From IMG/VR virus record IMGVR_UViG_3300025093_000018, positions 1 through 64,000 of that record: a DNA stretch of 64,000 nt; one strand, 5' to 3'. Position 1 is the stretch's first letter, and every line of letters begins with the position of its first letter. This document shows positions 5,337 through 56,122 of this stretch, piece after piece. The DNA comes from a virus. A program made the translations under genes and the position numbers. Below the pieces are notes generated by a model. The model was not told the DNA's origin, did no database searches, and saw only the letters and a list, made by a program, of their open reading frames with translations.

Positions 5337-5920
5337 TCGAAGTCTGATTTGTTAAATAAGGTGTAGGTGAAGGTGCTACCGTATAATCCTGTACTTTTTT
5401 CAAGTAAGGGTATAAATTCTTTTTCAAACCTAGGTTTACTCTTAATAACCTGACACCCGGCCGAATTTTTTCCAATATATTTTGCACTCCAAGCATGGTG
5501 TATATTAGTATAAAAAATCCCTTCTTCAATGGTAGATGGGTCTAAATCGTGGTTTGTATCCTTATTATTATCTCTATATACTGGTATAGCTTTAAATTGT
5601 CTACCAGCTTTATATCTTTTCCTTCCGTGAGGACCTATTTTAAAGGCTCCTCTGTATTGACCTTCTACCATGATTGCACACCCAGTTTTTCTCATTGGAT
5701 TCTTTAACCAATGTGACCCTGGATCTGTAGTCGCCTCAAACGAAACTACTTGAAAACATCCGTCATTATTATAGTATGCAACACATATATAATCATCAAA
5801 TAAATTGGTATTTGTTTGCATTCTAATACCAAATACATTAATAGAGTAAGGGGCAGTAAAAAACTTATACCCCTTACAATCAAATGCTTTCTTTATATTT
5901 TCTTCTGATAAATCTATCAT
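5333..5920 (-). CDS. Putative endolysin, L,D-transpeptidase-like His/Cys fold
   Basis: GIR...FDD...TTDPG...GQY...NIH...SAGCQV motif set; lies between holin-like and spanin-like genes. Confidence 0.65.
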   Translation of the reverse strand: MIDLSEENIKKAFDCKGYKFFTAPYSINVFGIRMQTNTNLFDDYICVAYYNNDGCFQVVSFEATTDPGSHWLKNPMRKTGCAIMVEGQYRGAFKIGPHGRKRYKAGRQFKAIPVYRDNNKDTNHDLDPSTIEEGIFYTNIHHAWSAKYIGKNSAGCQVIKSKPRFEKEFIPLLEKSTGLYGSTFTYTLFNKSDFE

Positions 5921-14208: not shown

Positions 14209-15635
14209 TAATCTGTCATTAATTCAGAGTAATCAAACGTATTATCAGCTAATTCTTTATTCACTAGTTCCCCTAATTTTTTCTTAGCTTCCGGATTCTT
14301 TTTAGCTTCTTTAGCTAGTTTTTCTATTTCTAAAGTAGATTCTTTATTAATAACTAATTCCTTACTTTCTATCTCAGCTACTTTAGCACCATTTTTTACA
14401 ACGGGTAAACCTCTATCGCCCTTTACACTTGTATTATTTTCCTCATCATGAGATGGCCCATCTACAATTACATTAGTTTTAGCCACATCTATTTTACCGC
14501 CCCTTCTAAATACAGGTACAGTTTTACTTCCGTTTTTCTTGAAAATAACTTTTGTAGGTTTAGTTTCTCTCCCTAAGAGTGTACCACCTTTCTCATACCT
14601 ATGTGTAATTTTTCTAGGCTTAGCTTCTGGTGTTGGCTCGTCTCTTTTTTCAGTTTCTGCTTTAATAGAAGCTATTTCATTCACAGAGATAATACCATAT
14701 CTAAGCACACCACCTTTTTTATATCTAAGATTACCTTGAGCATCATATCTAGATGCTTCATTCATTACTCTTTGATATCTAGCCTTTTCAGTAGCTTTAC
14801 CAATTATCTTTCTTTTTTGCTCCCTAATAGCAGCATTATGTCTTTCCCTAGCAGCGGCTGCTTTTTTCTCAGCTTTTTCTCTCTTTTCCTTAGCTCCTTT
14901 ACCAGAAAAATACCCAGCTACACCACCAATAACAGCTCCAGCTGCAGCACCAATAGGTCCTAAGGTCATACCAATACTAGCACCGGTAGCAGCACCAGAC
15001 ATAGCACCGCCAACATCTTCATTTTTATTAGCAGATTGTTGAGCACCAGCAGCACCAACTAAAGCAGTACCAGCCGCAACAGCAGCTCCACCACCAGCAG
15101 AGAAACCACCTCCTCCACCACCGCCGGATTTACCGCCACCAGAAGCAGCAGCTCCACCGCCTTTAGCTGTAGCAGCTCCACCGCCTGTAGGTTTACCAGC
15201 AGCTTTCCAATCAGCCCTAGACATAGCACCTTCCCCAGCACTAGATTTATATCCAGAATACCCTTTACTTTTACCCATACCACTAAACATACCACCTCCA
15301 GATCCTCCAGATTGTTTCCCACTCTGATAACCACTTATACCAGCTTGCATAGCTCCAGTCGTAGCTCCAGCATAATCAAAGTCAGTTTTTTCAAACTCAG
15401 GGGCTTCTTGTTCTTTAAGTAAATCAGCCTTATCCTTAGCCTCTGACATAGTTTTATTATGGTCTAAAAATTTTCTTCTTTTTTTATCTTTTTCAACAGA
15501 AGATAATTCTTTATCCTTACTTCTCATATTAAGATTAGAAGATGGTCTAATAGTTCCAGGTGGGGTCATACTATTAAGACTATTCCCATAAGCATCTGGT
15601 TGGTATCTGTTAAAAGCGTTATTTCTTAGTAACAT
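14208..15635 (-). CDS. Glycine-zipper putative ejection/membrane-channel protein
   Basis: GAATGASIG..GPIGAAAGAVIGGVAG zipper, Gly/Ala tract, three KxGG motifs. Confidence 0.6.
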   Translation of the reverse strand: MLLRNNAFNRYQPDAYGNSLNSMTPPGTIRPSSNLNMRSKDKELSSVEKDKKRRKFLDHNKTMSEAKDKADLLKEQEAPEFEKTDFDYAGATTGAMQAGISGYQSGKQSGGSGGGMFSGMGKSKGYSGYKSSAGEGAMSRADWKAAGKPTGGGAATAKGGGAAASGGGKSGGGGGGGFSAGGGAAVAAGTALVGAAGAQQSANKNEDVGGAMSGAATGASIGMTLGPIGAAAGAVIGGVAGYFSGKGAKEKREKAEKKAAAARERHNAAIREQKRKIIGKATEKARYQRVMNEASRYDAQGNLRYKKGGVLRYGIISVNEIASIKAETEKRDEPTPEAKPRKITHRYEKGGTLLGRETKPTKVIFKKNGSKTVPVFRRGGKIDVAKTNVIVDGPSHDEENNTSVKGDRGLPVVKNGAKVAEIESKELVINKESTLEIEKLAKEAKKNPEAKKKLGELVNKELADNTFDYSELMTD

Positions 15636-47866: not shown

Positions 47867-48468
47867 TACTCTTCATCATCCCTAAACACGCCACGTTCTA
47901 TCATAGAACTTCCCTTATCTCCTCTAACTCTACCAACATTTTCTACTTTCTTAGCTGTTTCCTTGGCTTTTAACATACCAACTGCTAGTACTTCTAATTG
48001 TTTTACAAATCCAGCAATAGCTCTCTCATTAGTAACAACCTTATCTAGTTGACCGTCTTCATCATGAACAATCTCTATAAAGGGTTCTGTTTTATTTAAT
48101 AAAGCACTGATTTCATCAATTTTCTTTTGTTGTACCATAGCAGATCTTTCTAACGCATCCTCATTAAAGTAGTTGTATGCGTCCATAGCAGCATCTATAA
48201 GACTCTGTTCTTTATTAGTGAATGATGTTTTATTGATAGGACCTAGAGCTCTGACCATGGCTTGTCTAGGTTTTTCGCGGTAGTCTACATCTTTCATAGG
48301 ATTGCTGTTTGTAAGATCACAACAATAAAATACGTATAATAACATACGCATGCCTAGCTCTTCTTTGTTCTTTTTACTAGCGTATTCAAGGATATTAGTA
48401 AATTCCTCAATCATAGCTAATTTAGGATCAATAGCTAGTTTACCACCAAGTAGTGTAAACGATATCAT
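47866..48468 (-). CDS. Putative terminase small subunit
   Basis: Helical 200 aa, coupled directly upstream of terL, C-terminal RVRG. Confidence 0.45.
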   Translation of the reverse strand: MISFTLLGGKLAIDPKLAMIEEFTNILEYASKKNKEELGMRMLLYVFYCCDLTNSNPMKDVDYREKPRQAMVRALGPINKTSFTNKEQSLIDAAMDAYNYFNEDALERSAMVQQKKIDEISALLNKTEPFIEIVHDEDGQLDKVVTNERAIAGFVKQLEVLAVGMLKAKETAKKVENVGRVRGDKGSSMIERGVFRDDEE

Positions 48469-48491
48469 ATTCTTCTTATTATCTTATATTA

Positions 48492-48710
48492 TTATTTCGA
48501 ATGTACTAAATCTTTAGTATTAAAGATCTGTTCTTGATATTCTCCTTTATTTGTAAACCAAAAACATAAAACACCCATTAGCTGAGGTTTATTAGTCTTC
48601 TCATCTTTCATTCGACTTTTCTTGATCTCTTTAACGATCATTTGAGGTCTAAACATAATTTCCTGTTTCAACTCTACAACTTCTCCAGGAACAAAATATA
48701 CCATACTCAT
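48492..48710 (-). CDS. YodC/DUF2158-like small protein
   Basis: F.PGEVVELK...P.M.V...V.C.WF...F...L pattern. Confidence 0.6.
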   Translation of the reverse strand: MSMVYFVPGEVVELKQEIMFRPQMIVKEIKKSRMKDEKTNKPQLMGVLCFWFTNKGEYQEQIFNTKDLVHSK

Positions 48711-48814
48711 AACTTATTAACATTAAAATTTATATTACTTTAATATAAGAAAGTTTTTAATAAGGTCAATGGGATTCGCGATTCGCGTATTGCATATCGT
48801 GATATGGAATATTG

Positions 48815-48887
48815 TTACCCCGCTAGGACTCGAACCCAGATCTGCGGGGCCGTAACCCACTGTTTTATCCAATTAAACTACAAGGCA
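48815..48887 (-). tRNA. tRNA-Arg(ACG)
   Basis: Cloverleaf; anticodon arm GTGGG-TTACGGC-CCCGC; GGTTCGAGTCC T-arm. Confidence 0.9.
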
Positions 48888-48893
48888 ATATAG

Positions 48894-48964
48894 AGCACCT
48901 GGTAGGATTCGAACCTACGTCTGAGGTTTTGCAGACCCCTGCCTAGCCACTCGGCCACAGGTGC
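48894..48964 (-). tRNA. tRNA-Cys(GCA)
   Basis: GCACCTG/CAGGTGC acceptor, U73, CT-GCA-AA loop. Confidence 0.92.
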
Positions 48965-48968
48965 GTAG

Positions 48969-49039
48969 CACGACAGGAAGGATTCGAACCTTCATGATAC
49001 GGTTTTGGAGACCGATCAGCACAACCTACGCTCTGAAGT
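48969..49039 (-). tRNA. tRNA-Trp(CCA), atypical acceptor and D arm
   Basis: CT-CCA-AA loop, good T-arm, G73; two acceptor mismatches. Confidence 0.75.
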
Positions 49040-49107
49040 AAATATTGTTATTTATATCCGATTAGTAAGGTTATAAGTGACTAACCAGATATAAATAACA
49101 AGTTTTG

Positions 49108-49190
49108 TAGCCGGGGCGGGAATCGAACCCGCACGTCCTAGGGACAACGGATTTTAAGTCCGTCGCGTCTACCTGTTCCGCCACCCGGCC
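49108..49190 (-). tRNA. tRNA-Leu(TAA)
   Basis: ACGGA-CTTAAAA-TCCGT, long variable arm, A73. Confidence 0.93.
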
Positions 49191-49252
49191 ATAGATTATA
49201 TTTGTTTCATTACCATTCACGTACAGTGAACAGGGACTTTTATTGAACATTG

Positions 49253-49333
49253 TAGCTTCGGTGGGATTCGAACCCACAAACCTCTTGCTTCTAAGGCAAG
49301 GTACTCTTCCATTCGTCTTTACGGCACGAAGCT
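49253..49333 (-). tRNA. tRNA-Leu(TAG), short variable loop, enlarged D region
   Basis: AGCTTCG/CGAAGCT acceptor; CTTGC-CTTAGAA-GCAAG. Confidence 0.8.
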
Positions 49334-49338
49334 ATTTG

Positions 49339-49414
49339 TAGCCCTAGAGAGGATCGAACTCTCTTTTCCGCAGTGAAAACGCGACGTCCTAACCAACAAT
49401 TAGACGATAGGGCC
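49339..49414 (-). tRNA. tRNA-Glu(TTC)
   Basis: GGCCCTA/TAGGGCT acceptor; TT-TTC-AC loop. Confidence 0.88.
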
Positions 49415-49421
49415 ATAAAAC

Positions 49422-49449
49422 AAAAAACCCCGGTGGTTACCGAGGTTCT
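49422..49449 (-). terminator. Attenuator terminator of tRNA operon 1
   Basis: AGAACCTCGGT-AACC-ACCGGGGTTTTTT, ending 7 nt upstream of tRNA-Glu. Confidence 0.85.
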
Positions 49450-49490
49450 TTAGTGTTTAACTTTAAAACTTTAAATTATGTCAATCAAAT

Positions 49491-49577
49491 TCAAATATCT
49501 TTAGCGCATACACCAGAACCTCCGTTGGATTCTTCCAACAGCCATAAACAAAGTTCTAATGTGCGTAATGTTTTCAT
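49491..49577 (-). CDS. Leader peptide 1 MKTLRTLELCLWLLEESNGGSGVCAKDI
   Basis: Hand translation; codons 4-16 are L,R,E,C,W except one Thr; contains antiterminator GAGGTTCTGGTGT. Confidence 0.8.
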   Translation of the reverse strand: MKTLRTLELCLWLLEESNGGSGVCAKDI

Positions 49578-49581
49578 ATTG

Positions 49582-49589
49582 CAAATTTA
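49582..49589 (-). promoter_or_regulatory. Bacteroidota -7 promoter element TAAATTTG
   Basis: Matches TAnnTTTG; 4 nt before the leader ATG. Confidence 0.7.
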
Positions 49590-49616
49590 ATAATAAAATT
49601 TAAAAGTAAAATGGGG

Positions 49617-50063
49617 TTAATCGTAAACTCGAACTTCTATAGTGTGATTTTTATAAAACTCGTTATTTACATAAGTTCCAGCAGAGTTAACCATTTCATA
49701 ATAAATAGTATTTACATCTTCCCAATACGCTAATACGTGACTATTACCATTTTGTGCTGTATTATTATGAAAAACTGCAGTTTTACCTTCTGTAAATACT
49801 CCAGCTAAGGTCATATAATAACCACCTGGGTACCCAGCATAACTCCAAACAGGTGTTCCTCCTAAAGTATTTTCTAATACAGTAGCATCAGGAGCACTAG
49901 TACCTGATTGTGTTAATGTTGCTGTATATACTCTATAGGGTCTTACAGTCTTATTGGCTAAAGCTATAAGTTCCTCTCTAAGTCTATTAATATCTTTTAC
50001 ATCTTTACCAGTATGTTGTATATTGGCTTTGATAGAATCTGTAGTATCAGATACTTGTCCCAT
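49617..50063 (-). CDS. Putative structural/fibre-tip protein
   Basis: YRVYTATLTQSGTSAP...LENTLG...IEVRVY domain. Confidence 0.55.
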   Translation of the reverse strand: MGQVSDTTDSIKANIQHTGKDVKDINRLREELIALANKTVRPYRVYTATLTQSGTSAPDATVLENTLGGTPVWSYAGYPGGYYMTLAGVFTEGKTAVFHNNTAQNGNSHVLAYWEDVNTIYYEMVNSAGTYVNNEFYKNHTIEVRVYD

Positions 50064-50089
50064 AATTGATTATTTTTAATTAAATTTTA

Positions 50090-50524
50090 TTAACTCTTAA
50101 CTGACCAATCAATTACCATTGCAGCGTCTAATGCGTTAGAAGCGTGAGCATTAAAGATCTTAATAGTAAGGGTATCATCTGTAGGCTCTACTTTAGAGAT
50201 TACAGGCATTCCAGCTCCTGTATAACTAGAGATTACAGCTGTAACAATTGAACCTGTAGTTAGTAAAGTATTAGAAATAGTTAATACAGTTGCTTCTGTA
50301 AGAGCAGCAGTTGATAACGCAGCAGTAGTAGATTTACCAACTGAGTTATTTAATGTAGGTGTTGCACCTGTTGTTGTGTTGTCTGAAGCTTCACCTGTTA
50401 AGTAGTTAGCTACATCAGTCATGAAGTTTCTAAGGGTCGTAGTAAAATCTTTTCTATCTGAATTGTATTGTAAGTCAGCTAAGATTCTAGTTTTAAGACC
50501 CGCGGATCCTGTAATAGTTGCCAT
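50090..50524 (-). CDS. Putative head fibre/decoration protein
   Basis: Thr/Ala-rich 144 aa, codon bias of a highly expressed gene. Confidence 0.5.
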   Translation of the reverse strand: MATITGSAGLKTRILADLQYNSDRKDFTTTLRNFMTDVANYLTGEASDNTTTGATPTLNNSVGKSTTAALSTAALTEATVLTISNTLLTTGSIVTAVISSYTGAGMPVISKVEPTDDTLTIKIFNAHASNALDAAMVIDWSVKS

Positions 50525-50625
50525 AATTTTTTATTTAAAATATTAATTAATATTGTTTATACGACTAAAGAATACAAAAATTTATCGTAAATACAAGGTT
50601 AATTACAAACTATTTAATTTAAGTA

Positions 50626-52890
50626 TTATTTATAAGGTAATAGATTACTCTTTTTTACTGAGTTTGTTTTAAATTCTGGTAATGTATAAGCATTTCCAGT
50701 CTTTAAATAATCTTGTAACTGGGTAAACTTCTCTTTAATCTTGGTATCTTTTAAATATACTTCTCTAGCTTTAGGCCAATATCTAGCCTTTTCAAACTCT
50801 TCTTCAGTTCCTTCAAACATTAATCCCCTGATCTGTCCATCTATCCAATTCTCTTTAAACTGCTCTTTACCATCTCCCTCTCCATAATCTTCCTTAGACA
50901 TTTCCCAATCACGCTCAAAATCTCCTTTATGTTTTTCCAAGAAAGCATCCTCAAATTCTTTTCTATGTTTTTTGTACACTTTATCACTAGTCATACCATG
51001 CATCATATCTAACATGATAGACTGCTCGTTGTTAGTTTTAGGGTCATAGACTATACCATGAGTACCAGGTTTAGGGTGATCATATGAATATCCACTATAA
51101 TAAGTTACTTTTTCTCGTCCTTCTTTAGGACTGAAATACTCTATACTACCAACACCAGTCTTATCTCTTGTGAACTCTGGGTCAGATTTTATAGTAACTT
51201 CACCCATGTTTTTAAATGCTGGATATTTATTATAGATGTTATCAAGCATTACCCCACCTTGTTGATACTTCAATAACACTCCTCCATTCCTTTTTGATTG
51301 TATTGATACAGCTCCAGATACTCCCACCAAAGGTGTTGTAGTGTAAACAGCATTTAAAAACTGTTTTAGGTCTTTTTTATCTAAATTCACTACTAAATTA
51401 GTAATATCATTTGGTAAATCTCCTCCTATTCTACTGCTAGATTTTAATTGATCAATGGCTGCATCAGATATATCCCCACCACTCCATAAGCCCTTTTCTT
51501 TTAGATAGGATAGAGCTCTAACACCTCTAACTTGTTGTTCTGGTTTTTTATTTAAATATTCTATTGTACGAATAACTTGTGGATTATCAGATTGTTGTCG
51601 TATAGTTTTAAAAGGTATCCCTTTCATACTATAGTCAATATTATACGTATTTGAGGCGTGTATAAATTCATGGTTAGCTATATTACTTAACTCCTTATTA
51701 TTAACGTTTTTATCTATACCTAACCAAACATGCGGGTTTTCATCTATAGTAGAAGAAAATCCTAACTGTCTAGTATCTACCCCGGTCATATCTTTATACG
51801 TAACTTCAGTTTTATTTAACTTATGTAAAGCTATTGCTCTAGCTCTCTTAGCATCAGCCTTACTTTCTTTGGCTACAGACATTCTACGTTTTAACCATTC
51901 ATCTGATTTTAACCAATTTTCTTGTTCTTTAAATGCTTTTTGTACTACCTCCAAATTCTTCTTACTTGGTATCACAGTAGGTGTGTTTAATAAATCTTTC
52001 TTTTTATATAATTGCTTATTTATAATATGTTGTTGTTTATCTTTTGGAGACTTTTTAACTATTTCCCAAAACTCTCTATCTTTTGATGTTAATAATTTAA
52101 TTTTATCATTTGATAATTTTAATATATCATCAACTGACTTAATATTATTAGTATTTGTATTTAAAGCGTCATATACATTTTTTACACTACCATCCTGATT
52201 ATAATGTATAGTTCTCTTTGTATCTATCTTTGCTTTACCTTCTGGGGATAAAAAAGAATTAAATATTTCCTCTTCTTTACTATAAATCGGTTTCTTTTTA
52301 GATAAATAAGGTTCTAATTTAGGGTCAAGAGTTGTTTTATTTAGTTTAGGATATATAACTGTTCCTTTATATACTTTAGGTGAAGGGGATTTTCTTAGTA
52401 ATCCTAAACCACTCTTACTTACAGGTTTAACATACTTACCAAGTTTAAGAGTATGCGCTGCTGCACCTATTTCTGGGGCTACAGCAATTACATCTAAAGC
52501 TTGATCAACACCTTCCCAATAAGGGCTCTTAGTGATAGGATTTACATAAGACATTTGAGCGTACATAGCTGAACCTGGGTTTGCGTACATAGTTAAATCT
52601 GCGGCAGTCTTCGCGGTACCTTTTGCTGTCCCTACAGGGTCATCTATAATTCTTGTCATAGAATTAAACGGTGTTATATCACCTAAAAAATTCATAACAC
52701 TATGACCTATTTGATCTAATTCTTCAGTTGTAGACTTAGATTTAACTGTAAATTCTGATAAATCAGGTGCCTGATAAACATCTGTTTTAGGGTTATACTT
52801 AGTTACGGTACCTTTTTTATAAGCTTTTTTATAATCAGAAGTTCCGTATTTAATCCCGCCACCTTTTTGGTATTTTAATAATATACCCAT
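50626..52890 (-). CDS. Multidomain putative cargo protein with zincin-like HExxH
   Basis: ANHEFIHAS...EQQVR; KYQKGG at the N-terminus and KRNGGVLLKYQQGG before the last domain. Confidence 0.6.
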   Translation of the reverse strand: MGILLKYQKGGGIKYGTSDYKKAYKKGTVTKYNPKTDVYQAPDLSEFTVKSKSTTEELDQIGHSVMNFLGDITPFNSMTRIIDDPVGTAKGTAKTAADLTMYANPGSAMYAQMSYVNPITKSPYWEGVDQALDVIAVAPEIGAAAHTLKLGKYVKPVSKSGLGLLRKSPSPKVYKGTVIYPKLNKTTLDPKLEPYLSKKKPIYSKEEEIFNSFLSPEGKAKIDTKRTIHYNQDGSVKNVYDALNTNTNNIKSVDDILKLSNDKIKLLTSKDREFWEIVKKSPKDKQQHIINKQLYKKKDLLNTPTVIPSKKNLEVVQKAFKEQENWLKSDEWLKRRMSVAKESKADAKRARAIALHKLNKTEVTYKDMTGVDTRQLGFSSTIDENPHVWLGIDKNVNNKELSNIANHEFIHASNTYNIDYSMKGIPFKTIRQQSDNPQVIRTIEYLNKKPEQQVRGVRALSYLKEKGLWSGGDISDAAIDQLKSSSRIGGDLPNDITNLVVNLDKKDLKQFLNAVYTTTPLVGVSGAVSIQSKRNGGVLLKYQQGGVMLDNIYNKYPAFKNMGEVTIKSDPEFTRDKTGVGSIEYFSPKEGREKVTYYSGYSYDHPKPGTHGIVYDPKTNNEQSIMLDMMHGMTSDKVYKKHRKEFEDAFLEKHKGDFERDWEMSKEDYGEGDGKEQFKENWIDGQIRGLMFEGTEEEFEKARYWPKAREVYLKDTKIKEKFTQLQDYLKTGNAYTLPEFKTNSVKKSNLLPYK

Positions 52891-52928
52891 ATCTAGGTAA
52901 TGTACAAAAAATTATTAAAAATATAAAG

Positions 52929-53002
52929 TACTCCCGGTAGGATTCGAACCTGGAACCGTCCCCTTAGAAGGGGGATGCTCTATCCAGTTGAGCTACGGGG
53001 CC
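52929..53002 (-). tRNA. Chimeric tRNA-Arg(TCT), probably a fusion of two tRNA genes
   Basis: Perfect D and anticodon arms (TCCCC-CTTCTAA-GGGGA) but T-stem CCAGG/CCTAC and acceptor GGCCCCG/CGGGAGT mispair. Confidence 0.75.
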
Positions 53003-53006
53003 AAAT

Positions 53007-53040
53007 AAAAAAGCCCCGGAACTTTGTAGTCCGAGGCTTC
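53007..53040 (-). terminator. Attenuator terminator of tRNA operon 2
   Basis: GAAGCCTCGGACT-ACAA-AGTTCCGGGGCTTTTTT just upstream of tRNA-Arg. Confidence 0.85.
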
Positions 53041-53064
53041 CTGTTATATATGAATTATTCTTAC

Positions 53065-53157
53065 TTACATATTTACAAATACAGATAGCCGCGGACTCCG
53101 TCTCGAATCGACAGTTCCGTTACTCTTAATGCCTGTATTTATAATTATTGCTTGCAT
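53065..53157 (-). CDS. Leader peptide 2 MQAIIINTGIKSNGTVDSRRSPRLSVFVNM
   Basis: Hand translation; contains antiterminator AGTCCGCGGCTATCTGT; preceded by near-consensus TTATATTGC. Confidence 0.78.
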   Translation of the reverse strand: MQAIIINTGIKSNGTVDSRRSPRLSVFVNM

Positions 53158-53189
53158 GTTGATTGCAATATAAATATTAAATTTTAAAC

Positions 53190-53789
53190 CTAAAAGGTCT
53201 TAGAATAATTTTTTAGCTTTTCTTTATCAGAACTTGAAAATTTAGATGAGTAGGTTAGGTTACCTTCTTCGCTCATTATATAATCCTCTGTACCACTATG
53301 GTATAAACCAAATAGATGTCCAAACTCATGTATAATAACCCTTGAACAATCCTTATTCGAATCCTGAAGACTGAGATCTACAAGGGCTACAGCCTTTAAA
53401 GTACCTATACAGTTAGTATGAGCTGCTCCTATAACATCTTCGTCACTTCTACCTGTAATATACAAACTTATATCGGCCCAATTATTAGTTAACCTTTTAA
53501 TAGAGGCTATTACAGAAAGATACGGGTTATAATCACTACCTCCATATGTAAAGGTAGAAATTTTAAAGTGGATGCCTACTTGAGCATATACATTATTAAC
53601 GTGGATCATAATCTCTTTAAGATCACTATAAGTTTTACTGGATGTGGTATCTACAAAGATATTTACGTTATAATGTTGGGTAGCTACTAACTCCTGCGCA
53701 TTAGATTTCAACACAGGATCAATTTTATATTGCCCTAGTAATGTAAAGCTGCAAACAAATAAGGCTAAAAATAATAAAAGTTTTTTCAT
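53190..53789 (-). CDS. Secreted metzincin (reprolysin/M12-like) metalloprotease
   Basis: Signal peptide; HEFGHLFGLYH plus Met-turn YIMS. Confidence 0.8.
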   Translation of the reverse strand: MKKLLLFLALFVCSFTLLGQYKIDPVLKSNAQELVATQHYNVNIFVDTTSSKTYSDLKEIMIHVNNVYAQVGIHFKISTFTYGGSDYNPYLSVIASIKRLTNNWADISLYITGRSDEDVIGAAHTNCIGTLKAVALVDLSLQDSNKDCSRVIIHEFGHLFGLYHSGTEDYIMSEEGNLTYSSKFSSSDKEKLKNYSKTF

Positions 53790-53859
53790 AATTTAAATCA
53801 TATTTACATTCTCATAGTACTAAGGTAACACTTTTTATTTGAATAAAAAAGTGTAATTG

Positions 53860-53930
53860 TTACCAGGAGAGGATTCGAACCTCTACCTTCTGGACCAAAA
53901 CCAGACGTCCTGCCATTAGACCACCCGGCA
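53860..53930 (-). tRNA. tRNA-Gln(TTG)
   Basis: TCTGG-TTTTGGT-CCAGA; U1-A72. Confidence 0.92.
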
Positions 53931-53936
53931 ATTTTG

Positions 53937-54009
53937 TGGACGAGGGCGGATTCGAACCACCGACGCTAGGCTCTTCAGGCCCACGCTCTACCAACTGAGC
54001 TACTCGTCC
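53937..54009 (-). tRNA. tRNA-Phe(GAA)
   Basis: GGACGAG/CTCGTCC; CT-GAA-GA loop. Confidence 0.93.
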
Positions 54010-54016
54010 AGTTTAG

Positions 54017-54104
54017 GGTGTACGATGGGATTCGAACCCATGACGTGTCACTAACCGTACCGGGACCACAACCCAGCGCCTTCGACCGCTTGGCTACGCA
54101 CACC
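54017..54104 (-). tRNA. tRNA-His(GTG) with G-1 and an 18-nt variable arm
   Basis: G-1:C73; TT-GTG-GT loop; variable region TACGGTTAGTGACACGTC. Confidence 0.87.
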
Positions 54105-54110
54105 ATGTAG

Positions 54111-54192
54111 TGGGACCGGGAGGACTCGAACCTCCAAGCCGTTAGGACCCGGGTTACAACCGGGGACGCTACCAATTACGCTCTACGTTCCC
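54111..54192 (-). tRNA. tRNA-Tyr(GTA)
   Basis: CCCGG-TTGTAAC-CCGGG; extended variable arm; A73. Confidence 0.88.
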
Positions 54193-54308
54193 ATATTATA
54201 TACGATCACATATAATCCCCGATATATCAGGTAATTTTATAATATTATACCCGCTATAGCATGGTTTTATATGTTTTACATATATTATACCCTAATAGGT
54301 ATAATTTG

Positions 54309-54382
54309 TGGAGCTACCGGGATTCGAACCCGGAACCTCTTCCGTGCAAAGGAAGCGCTCTTCCAGTTAGAGCTACAGCCCC
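54309..54382 (-). tRNA. tRNA-Ala(TGC)
   Basis: G3:U70; CTTCC-TTTGCAC-GGAAG. Confidence 0.93.
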
Positions 54383-54387
54383 ATATG

Positions 54388-54461
54388 TAGCGGGGGCGAG
54401 ATTCGAACTCGCGTCCTTCGGGTTATGAGCCCGACGTCCTAGACCCCTAGACCACCCCGCT
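54388..54461 (-). tRNA. tRNA-Met(CAT), initiator-like
   Basis: Three G:C pairs in the anticodon stem (TCGGG/CCCGA); A1-U72 pair. Confidence 0.88.
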
Positions 54462-54464
54462 AAG

Positions 54465-54537
54465 TCGAGTGAGCTGGATTCGAACCAGCGAATTCGTGCT
54501 CCCAAAGCACGCCCGTATAGCCTCTGCGTACCACTCG
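54465..54537 (-). tRNA. tRNA-Pro(TGG), atypical D arm
   Basis: C1-G72, A73; CGTGC-TTTGGGA-GCACG. Confidence 0.83.
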
Positions 54538-54545
54538 ATATAATA

Positions 54546-54577
54546 CAAAAAGCCCGAACTCTTTAAGAATCCGGGCT
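54546..54577 (-). terminator. Attenuator terminator of tRNA operon 3
   Basis: AGCCCGGATTCT-TAA-AGAGTTCGGGCT followed by TTTT, upstream of tRNA-Pro. Confidence 0.85.
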
Positions 54578-54604
54578 AATCAGCTTAGTATATGTATGAT
54601 CACA

Positions 54605-54682
54605 TTATAACACACTAATATCACCCAGAGAGCTAAAGGCCATCGGCTGAAAATAAAATGCGTTATGTTGTGTTTTTCTCAT
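54605..54682 (-). CDS. Leader peptide 3 MRKTQHNAFYFQPMAFSSLGDISVL
   Basis: Hand translation; codons 5-16 are Q,H,A,F,Y,P,M except one Asn; contains antiterminator TCTGGGTGATATTAGTGTGT. Confidence 0.8.
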   Translation of the reverse strand: MRKTQHNAFYFQPMAFSSLGDISVL

Positions 54683-54715
54683 TGAAGTTATTTCTTCGTT
54701 TTGTTTATCGTACTG

Positions 54716-54723
54716 CAAATATA
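54716..54723 (-). promoter_or_regulatory. Bacteroidota -7 promoter element TATATTTG
   Basis: Exact TAnnTTTG upstream of leader 3. Confidence 0.7.
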
Positions 54724-54762
54724 AATATATGTTTTTAATCTACAAGGTACTAAATAAAAATT

Positions 54763-55494
54763 TTAAATATCTGTTACATCAGGTAATGCTTTATATGTCT
54801 TCAATTCTTCTTCAGCCTTTAATCTAAGCTGTCTCTCCTTCAACCCCATAGATTTCCATTTGGCCTCACTTTGTACAGCTCTAGAGTACTCGTATTCGGC
54901 TTCATCTATTACTACAGCATAGATATTTATTGTGTCTTCATCAGATACATGGCCTAACGATTTAAGCTTTTTAGCTAAATCATTTAAAGCTTTATTTGTA
55001 AAACCACAGGGCTTGACTCTGTTACTTTTTGCATCATTAAATTCTATCTCCTTGCCTGTTTTTACCGTATAGATGTATAGTTGTCCTATCATTAACTTCT
55101 CTTCCCAGGTAAGATTCTTTGAATTAAGAAAAGCACTGGGGATCTTCATCACATCTCTATAACTACTGCTTACTCTATACTTGCCATTAGATATCTTCCC
55201 AAGGACACCGAGTTCTTCAAGATCTTTAAAAGCTCTTTTGATCGTACTAAGTGATGCTCCAGTAATTTCCGCTATCTCAGACCTATTAGGCAATGTTAAG
55301 GTATTTGATCTCGAATCATAAACACCTATTGTTTTAAGTATGGCTAGTACCATTAATTGTTTTGGATAATTAATAAAACCATCAGGTAATGTTACATACC
55401 CTCCGGTTCTTAATGTGGCTTTCATACCACCAACCCCTTTAAAGGTTACAGGACTTCCGTCGTCCTTTAGTGCATTAAACTTCTTCATTTCCAT
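54763..55494 (-). CDS. Winged-HTH protein, putative replication initiator
   Basis: RSEIAEITGASLSTIKRAFKDLEELG HTH, second NLTWEEKL module; adjacent iterons; TATATTTG (55499-55506) 4 nt before the ATG. Confidence 0.6.
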   Translation of the reverse strand: MEMKKFNALKDDGSPVTFKGVGGMKATLRTGGYVTLPDGFINYPKQLMVLAILKTIGVYDSRSNTLTLPNRSEIAEITGASLSTIKRAFKDLEELGVLGKISNGKYRVSSSYRDVMKIPSAFLNSKNLTWEEKLMIGQLYIYTVKTGKEIEFNDAKSNRVKPCGFTNKALNDLAKKLKSLGHVSDEDTINIYAVVIDEAEYEYSRAVQSEAKWKSMGLKERQLRLKAEEELKTYKALPDVTDI

Positions 55495-55539
55495 AATGCA
55501 AATATAAGGAAAATTAATGAATTAAAAAAGGTTCATTTT

Positions 55540-55765
55540 AAAAAGGGTCAGATTTCCTCACCCGTCTTTAAAGGGCTAGAGAGCTTTTAGTAGTTTTAGT
55601 ATGGTTCATTTAGGTGTTTTTCGGTAGTTTTTCGGTAAAATTTCGGAAAAAGGGTCAGATTTCCCCCAAAAAGGGTCAGATTTCCTCAATGATTTTTGGT
55701 AAAATTTTTGGGGTTAAATAGTTGAAAATAAAAACGTTAAAAAGAAAAAGGGTCAGATTTCCTCA
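55540..55765. repeat. Four 21-bp direct repeats AAAAAGGGTCAGATTTCCTCA (iteron-like)
   Basis: Copies at 55540, 55647 (ends CCCC), 55668 and 55745; interspersed TTTCGG and GGTTCATTT repeats. Confidence 0.9.
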
Positions 55766-55798
55766 TCTTTTTAACGCTATTATATATTAAGGATTATT

Positions 55799-56122
55799 TT
55801 ATTTTGAAGTACTACAAGTAACCCAAAACGGTTGATCAAGTGGTCTATATGTCCAATCAGGTCTACTTAGAATAGGGCCATGGATTGGGCACCAGGTTGA
55901 GTTCCACCAACCGCATGTACATGTTTGGGAAATATATGGTACTGGAGATGTTACCGGAGGTACGTAAACTTCCTCCTCTACCTCCTCATGTTTGTCCGTA
56001 GATTTGTCGGAAAACTTTGCTAATTTATCTTTAATCTTTTGTACTTGTTCTTCATTTAAGGTCTTAGCTCCTGATATATCAAAGAAACCATTTAACCAGA
56101 TTATAAATTCTTCGTGTGTCAT
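55799..56122 (-). CDS. Hypothetical protein
   Basis: MT.EEF..WL.GF.......L...Q...IK..L N-terminus common in phages; CTC...CP.H. Confidence 0.6.
   Translation of the reverse strand: MTHEEFIIWLNGFFDISGAKTLNEEQVQKIKDKLAKFSDKSTDKHEEVEEEVYVPPVTSPVPYISQTCTCGWWNSTWCPIHGPILSRPDWTYRPLDQPFWVTCSTSK

Follow-up and report, generated by a model that had tools for sequence, protein, structure and literature searches.

The DNA analyzed in this work is a stretch of 64,000 nt (hereafter, the window) that corresponds to bases 1-64000 of an 80,990-nt IMG/VR virus record with an estimated completeness of 42% and a GC content of 0.335. The large terminase of this phage presents 21-27% identity to those of crAss-like phages of Bacteroides, and the record represents an uncultured crAss-like phage that may be of marine origin. 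The window contains three tRNA clusters, here termed sites 1, 2 and 3. The minus strand carries the tRNA genes considered in this work, as well as the open reading frames (ORF) of at least 100 residues located at 45.5-56.1 kb.

The subject of this report is site 3, where a short leader ORF and a hairpin followed by a T-run lie ahead of seven tRNA genes (Table 1). The anticodons assigned by ARAGORN to these genes are, in order, Pro(tgg; 54537-54464), Met(cat), Ala(tgc), Tyr(gta), His(gtg), Phe(gaa) and Gln(ttg; ending at 53859). The tRNA-His gene is called at 87-88 nt, longer than usual for His, both in the window (54016-54103) and in the relative L026 introduced below (968-1054).

Table 1. Features assigned at site 3 and extent of the two sister sites, in window coordinates
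Feature	Position	Strand	Basis or remark
-33-like TTG element, 19 nt upstream of the -7 box	54743..54745	-	Read from sequence
Bacteroidota-type -7 box (TAnnTTTG), 33 nt before the leader ATG	54716..54723	-	Exact motif match
Leader ORF, 25 codons plus stop	54605..54682	-	ATG at 54682; stop 54607-54605
Putative sensing core, codons 5-16	54635..54670	-	11 of 12 residues in the seven-tRNA set
Predicted region 1, 5' strand of the 1:2 anti-antiterminator, within codons 6-9	54657..54666	-	Minimum free energy (MFE) fold; RNAalifold
Predicted region 2 (5' part), antiterminator strand, codons 18-20	54623..54629	-	Stalled-ribosome fold
Predicted region 2 (3' part), pairs with region 1; codons 23-25 and part of stop	54607..54616	-	MFE fold; RNAalifold
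Predicted region 3, part of the terminator 5' arm captured by the antiterminator	54570..54576	-	Stalled-ribosome folds
Intrinsic terminator hairpin (regions 3:4), 12 pairs, 3-nt loop, -17.4 kcal/mol	54551..54577	-	
Terminator T-run; tRNA-Pro starts 8 nt further	54546..54550	-	
tRNA-Pro, Met, Ala, Tyr, His, Phe, Gln	53859..54537	-	ARAGORN; Rfam agrees
Putative sister attenuators 1 and 2	49577-49415 and 53157-53003	-	Layout as attenuator 3

Related loci were sought with several queries. A search with a terminase alignment returned 36 viral loci, seven of which contain tRNAs detected by ARAGORN, while a search with the single terminase protein returned three short contigs, one of them with tRNAs. 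Homologs of leader 3 were identified in three of the terminase loci, designated L004 (ATG at 1847), L026 (ATG at 249) and L023 (ATG at 5796), and a degenerate pattern search located a fifth copy on the metagenome contig L040 (ATG at 956). In viral contigs, searches with an exact pattern and with a peptide-level degenerate pattern yielded nothing beyond L004, L026 and L023, and the degenerate leader pattern had no match in genome contigs. Used as a query, the 243-residue gene product neighboring site 3 retrieved no viral locus, and its three-protein alignment retrieved no metagenome locus; no locus was found with the 199-residue neighbor, and blastn against the phage collection produced matches to tRNAs only. 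The features of sites 1 and 2 were also examined on L003, L004, L006 and L026.

The 243-residue gene lies immediately upstream (54763-55494, minus strand), with its stop codon at 54765-54763, and the -7 box of site 3 is located between this gene and the leader ORF. The precomputed Pfam assignment of its product is PF05732, of the winged-helix or replication-initiator kind, and a relative is assigned to PF13730 and named as a GntR-family regulator in its source. The 33 nt that separate the -7 box from the leader ATG are A-rich. A TTG trinucleotide is present in the -33 zone of four of the five site-3 leaders, and its assignment rests on the -33 consensus of the Bacteroidota promoter literature. 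Over the phage family, 11 of the 14 leaders have an exact -7 box within the 110 nt upstream, where 0.07 would be expected per stretch. At site 3 the box is found in the window, L026, L023 and L040, and L004 has no exact box.

Two further observations concern this region. A second promoter between the terminator and tRNA-Pro of the window was considered and rejected, there being no room for it. A small GC-rich hairpin is present in the 5' untranslated part of some leaders, downstream of the promoter box and ahead of the ATG, in L026 (220-235 and approximately 2370-2390) and L023 (5757-5772), and is absent at site 3 of the window.

Codon composition and conservation of leader 3

The leader ORF is open in frame 0, with one and four stops in the other two frames, and a spacer of 27 nt separates it from the terminator hairpin. 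According to the original prediction, 11 of 12 consecutive codons in this ORF encode amino acids of the downstream tRNA set, with all seven tRNAs represented and with a Pro-Met-Ala run in the order in which the first three tRNA genes occur. Both statements hold: the match spans codons 5-16, with the Asn at codon 7 as sole exception, and the ordered run occupies codons 13-15. The seven amino acids account for a fraction of 0.26 of the 19,795 residues encoded by 51 long ORFs of the record, and the binomial tail for at least 11 in-set residues out of 12 is 3.3e-6. When all 73,164 stop-free 12-codon segments in the six frames of the 80,990-nt record are scored, only two reach 11, namely the leader 3 core and a low-complexity stretch at 15065-15100. 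Leader 3 also ranks first among 260 small ORFs (20-45 codons), its score of 11 being followed by a next best of 8. Two details count against the model: the Asn at codon 7 falls outside the tRNA set, and the GCC at codon 15 is, in our reading, no standard wobble partner of the tgc anticodon.

The low-complexity sequence (15044-15186), which is probably a repeat inside a gene, scores high for the site-3 set on the plus strand and for the site-1 set on the minus strand.

The composition of the core bears directly on a reading in which the hairpin is the ordinary terminator of the upstream 243-residue gene, the ORF encodes a conserved micropeptide that resembles the tRNA set by chance, and the tRNAs are expressed through constitutive leak-through. 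Small conserved phage peptides do exist, and the hairpin is found some 190 nt after the stop codon of that gene (54763), but the intervening promoter box does not fit this arrangement, and a chance match with a probability of about 3e-6 per site would have had to be repeated at three sites. Moreover, one homolog carries a non-conservative change of Phe to Pro in the core, a poor fit for a peptide with a function of its own, and the peptide lacks conservation in its 3' half, whereas the pairing of this part to the terminator, described below, is conserved. We regard this reading as highly improbable.

All five homologs of leader 3 maintain an ORF of 24-25 codons with a score of 11 out of 12. 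These homologs are related and hence cannot be treated as independent. Considering the three leader types together, the leader frame is open in all 14 leaders, and both of the other frames contain stops in 13 of them. With a relaxed ARAGORN threshold, the tRNAs behind leader 3 are of the same seven kinds in L004 and of the same seven plus a second Met in L026, whereas L023 keeps the leader with only the Ala and Gln tRNAs left; the L040 contig ends shortly after tRNA-Pro. Leaders outlive tRNAs, as illustrated by L023 and by leader 2, which in the window stands before a single Arg tRNA, so that the composition of a leader does not closely follow the tRNAs that accompany it.

The residue changes observed within the core are confined to four codons. 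At codon 11, Phe occurs in three homologs, with Pro and Tyr in one homolog each. A single homolog out of the five deviates at each of the other three positions, with His in place of Gln at codon 12, Gln in place of Pro at codon 13 and Leu in place of Gln at codon 5. Four of these five changes fall inside the tRNA set, and one of the four (Phe to Pro) swaps all three bases of the codon; synonymous third-base changes occur at codons 8, 12 and 16. This pattern fits selection on the tRNA that reads each codon better than it fits selection on the peptide. The nucleotide sequence of the core is itself highly conserved, with 33 of the 41 alignment columns 15-55 invariant, synonymous sites included, as compared to 4 of the next 50 columns. 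This suggests a second constraint, putatively exerted through the pairing of region 1.

The near-invariance of the core nucleotides, synonymous sites included, would also fit a constraint on RNA instead of codons, and therefore a structured untranslated RNA, such as a phage small RNA or an element for the processing or stability of the tRNA precursor, and the open frame would then be incidental. Small RNAs are, in addition, commonly laid out as a hairpin with a terminator behind it. Set against this are the frame itself, which is open in five of five homologs while other frames contain stops, and the three-base change from Phe to Pro and the other in-set changes, which make sense only as codons. 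Furthermore, the three leaders of the window differ in sequence, each matching its own tRNA set, and an Rfam search of 54538-54730 with E up to 1 matched no family. We thus consider an untranslated RNA unlikely.

Predicted structures and proposed mechanism of the leader RNA

The MFE fold of the free leader (z = -3.7) consists of a long hairpin, in which codons 6-9 pair with codons 23-25 and the stop, followed by the terminator. The same 1:2 hairpin (columns 17-26 with 67-76) and the terminator are obtained with RNAalifold on the five sequences. Terminators with stabilities ranging from -11.4 to -17.4 kcal/mol and a T-run are present in all five homologs, and the RNAalifold analysis identifies compensatory pairs, changed on both sides, at two positions of the terminator.

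The effect of a stalled ribosome was modeled by placing it on each codon in turn, with the RNA taken as free from 13 nt past the start of the A-site codon, and by folding the RNA made before the 3' arm of the terminator exists. When the A site occupies codon 10, the 3' part of the ORF pairs with 7-10 nt of the terminator 5' arm in all five homologs. In the window this 2:3 pairing involves 7 nt (54629-54623 with 54576-54570) and coincides with the outer helix of the antiterminator advanced in the original prediction, the inner helix of which differs from the one obtained in the stalled fold. The 7-10 nt arm pairing is maintained from codon 3-4 to approximately codon 14-16 in the five homologs and is lost beyond; with the A site at codons 1-3, 0-5 nt of the arm are paired in the window, L004 and L023. 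A sensing range reaching codon 16, as initially suggested, agrees with the end of the in-set run, but the fold profile restricts the sensors to codons 3-14, approximately. Shuffled versions of the upstream part matched the real fold and its arm pairing in 22, 2, 0, 7 and 21 of 300 cases for the five homologs, the control being weak for the two at 22 and 21.

In the MAFFT alignment the terminator of L026 is displaced by one column, and the antiterminator strand occurs in two registers, at codons 18-20 for the window, L026 and L023 and at codons 20-22 for L004 and L040; the 2:3 pairing was therefore judged from folds of each individual sequence. Covariation among homologous loci had been put forward as a check on the proposed pairing, and we read the result as covariation: the pairing strand differs among homologs in sequence and register, and it tracks the terminator of each homolog.

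At equilibrium, the terminator probability never falls below 0.43 in the stalled states of the window and is approximately 1.0 in most states of four of the five homologs, with L026 alone switching clearly. The terminator is therefore still favored at equilibrium in most stalled states, and any switch would have to be kinetic. Classical attenuators switch kinetically.

The preference of equilibrium folding for the terminator can also be read as the mark of a decayed or fixed-level attenuator, derived from a working switch and now providing a constant, low level of read-through, and the persistence of leaders after tRNA loss, in L023 and at site 2 of the window, points in the same direction. 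At site 3 of the window, however, the seven tRNAs and all the parts of the switch are intact, and the compensatory changes show that pairing has been maintained by selection. On balance, we find decay to a constant level quite unlikely.

We consider it probable that site 3 is a multivalent, ribosome-mediated (leader-peptide) transcription attenuator that regulates tRNA genes. The leader-peptide reading made in the original prediction finds support at the sequence level, all parts being present in the window and kept in four relatives, and there are no experimental or RNA data. Examined for the elements that characterize such attenuators, the site has a short ORF between the promoter box and the tRNA genes, open in frame in the five homologs, a run of regulatory codons matching what the downstream genes supply, and an intrinsic terminator between the ORF and the first tRNA. 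Its folds also provide a 1:2 anti-antiterminator in the absence of translation, and it is on folding only that we can predict an antiterminator that excludes the terminator when a ribosome stalls on the core. The site departs from those attenuators in its regulated genes, which are seven tRNAs and not biosynthesis enzymes or aminoacyl-tRNA synthetases. The translation of the ORF, the coupling of ribosome and polymerase, and the regulatory response, with read-through rising when charged tRNA is scarce, are inferred.

In the proposed mechanism, the host RNA polymerase would start transcription a few bases past the -7 box (54723-54716) and transcribe the 25-codon leader, with a ribosome translating it close behind the polymerase. 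Slow decoding on codons 5-14, of any of the seven kinds, would leave the ribosome covering region 1, so that codons 18-20 and the following stretch would be available for pairing with the terminator 5' arm at a time when the 3' arm has yet to be made. Should the 2:3 pairing form first, the polymerase would read through into the genes from tRNA-Pro to tRNA-Gln. Under fast decoding, the ribosome would arrive at the stop codon and cover region 2, allowing the terminator to form, and without translation the 1:2 hairpin would hold region 2, again leading to termination. The predicted outcome is a negative feedback, with the tRNA block made when its codons are read slowly and off when supply is adequate. 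Depletion of host tRNAs during infection could be the trigger, although there is no evidence for it.

Relation to known regulatory leaders

To our knowledge, the leader-peptide attenuators described so far all regulate genes for amino-acid biosynthesis or aminoacyl-tRNA synthetases, and none of them controls tRNAs; a full-text literature search returned no description of leader-peptide control of tRNA genes. If our interpretation is correct, the working principle of site 3 would be that of known leader-peptide attenuation, and its novelty would reside in having tRNAs as the regulated genes.

Multivalent leaders are well established in enterobacteria, where the thr leader responds to Thr and Ile and the leaders of ilvGMEDA and ilvBN respond to Ile, Leu and Val. 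The phage element resembles them in its short ORF with regulatory codons for multiple amino acids, in its mutually exclusive 1:2, 2:3 and 3:4 pairings and in the location of the terminator before the first gene. It is unlike them in that it would regulate tRNAs instead of biosynthetic enzymes and sense seven amino acids, and in its Bacteroidota-type promoters. There is no sequence similarity to these leaders either, as no Rfam leader family matched the phage element in a search of positions 48000-56000 with E up to 1.

In Escherichia coli, the pheST attenuator relies on a leader with Phe codons to control phenylalanyl-tRNA synthetase. There, as predicted for the phage element, the availability of charged tRNA is sensed through a leader peptide and the target belongs to the translation apparatus and not to biosynthesis, but the pheST attenuator senses a single amino acid and controls a protein-coding operon, whereas the products of the genes under the phage element would be of the very class of molecules that its sensor reads.

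The Bacteroid-trp motif is interpreted as a leader with Trp codons. It shares with site 3 the host phylum and the configuration as an upstream leader-type element, and it differs in preceding trp genes, not tRNAs. The motif (RF01692) is listed as a cis-regulatory candidate in Bacteroidetes (PMC2864571). Searching the 80,990-nt record with RF01692 yielded 0 matches, and the same search matched a Bacteroides thetaiotaomicron control.

T-box elements bind uncharged tRNA directly, without a ribosome, and are recognized by a specifier loop and the T-box sequence. As is proposed for the phage element, they respond to tRNA status by switching between terminator and antiterminator ahead of genes related to translation, and they are unlike it in that the phage element carries a conserved ORF. 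Identity of site 3 as a T-box riboswitch was rejected, given the lack of any Rfam T-box match.

Among crAss-like phages, crAss001 offers a comparison. Its first tRNA cluster, upstream of the terminase as in the window, has a -7 box directly before the first tRNA (1660-1683), with no leader ORF of at least 10 codons and no terminator, and none of the other intergenic stretches of crAss001 that were examined yielded a terminator-like hairpin. The layout seen at site 3 hence does not extend to Crassvirales in general.

The reasons for which phages carry tRNAs, and the moment at which they use them, remain an open question. If the attenuator reading holds, the tRNA supply of this phage would be actively regulated by demand during infection, and leader-peptide attenuation would extend from amino-acid metabolism to the tRNA pool itself. 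The element would also constitute a compact and portable part, of approximately 180 nt, that reports on the decoding rate of a chosen set of codons.

The sister sites

The same layout recurs at the other two tRNA clusters of the window, with each leader located directly before its own cluster and presenting its own codon set. Leader 1 (ATG at 49577) ranks first among the small ORFs for the Glu/Leu/Trp/Cys/Arg set, with a score of 11 against 9 for the next one. Leader 2 (ATG at 53157) attains 12 out of 12 for a set of ten amino acids, defined from the tRNAs that follow its homologs in relatives, and 3 of the 260 small ORFs reach that score. Jointly, the sets of the three clusters cover all 20 amino acids.

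The in-set run of the window leaders ends at codons 16, 21 and 16 for attenuators 1, 2 and 3, respectively, and the predicted pairing collapses at codons 15-17, 17-19 and 15-16, so that in all three attenuators it is lost near the end of the run. The original prediction held that attenuators 1 and 3 share their geometry without evident sequence similarity. Their geometry does match, with both runs ending at codon 16 and pairing collapsing at around codon 15-17, and what similarity there is between them is weak, their local alignment score being reached by 9 of 200 shuffles.

A broader interpretation, which we advance only tentatively and regard as possible but doubtful, is that the tRNAs of this phage family, for all 20 amino acids, are divided among three closed-loop regulons, each controlled by a ribosome that test-reads the codons of that same regulon, and that they would work as an on-demand tRNA replacement system. 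Such a system would turn on when host tRNAs run down, as a result of host shut-off or of defense nucleases that cut anticodons, and would turn off once they are restored.

Several observations were made on the sister sites and on tRNA calls elsewhere in the record. In four of five phages, the site-1 leaders start 4-6 nt after the -7 box, and with an ATG so close to the box they may be translated from a leaderless or nearly leaderless mRNA. Two tRNA-like genes (49330-49245 and 49039-48969, minus strand) were missed by ARAGORN under default settings. One of them occupies the position of Leu(tag) in relatives and has a sub-threshold Rfam match and conflicting calls from relaxed ARAGORN, and the other is a weak Trp(cca). 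Cluster 1 of L004 (5282-5740) lacks Arg(acg) and Leu(taa), and leader 1 of L004 lacks an Arg codon; in L006 no Arg(acg) was detected, yet leader 1 retains an Arg codon, so the co-variation of leader and tRNA content is only partial. Beyond the window, a 112-nt Rfam tRNA match of 46 bits is located at 69853-69964 of the record, on the plus strand.
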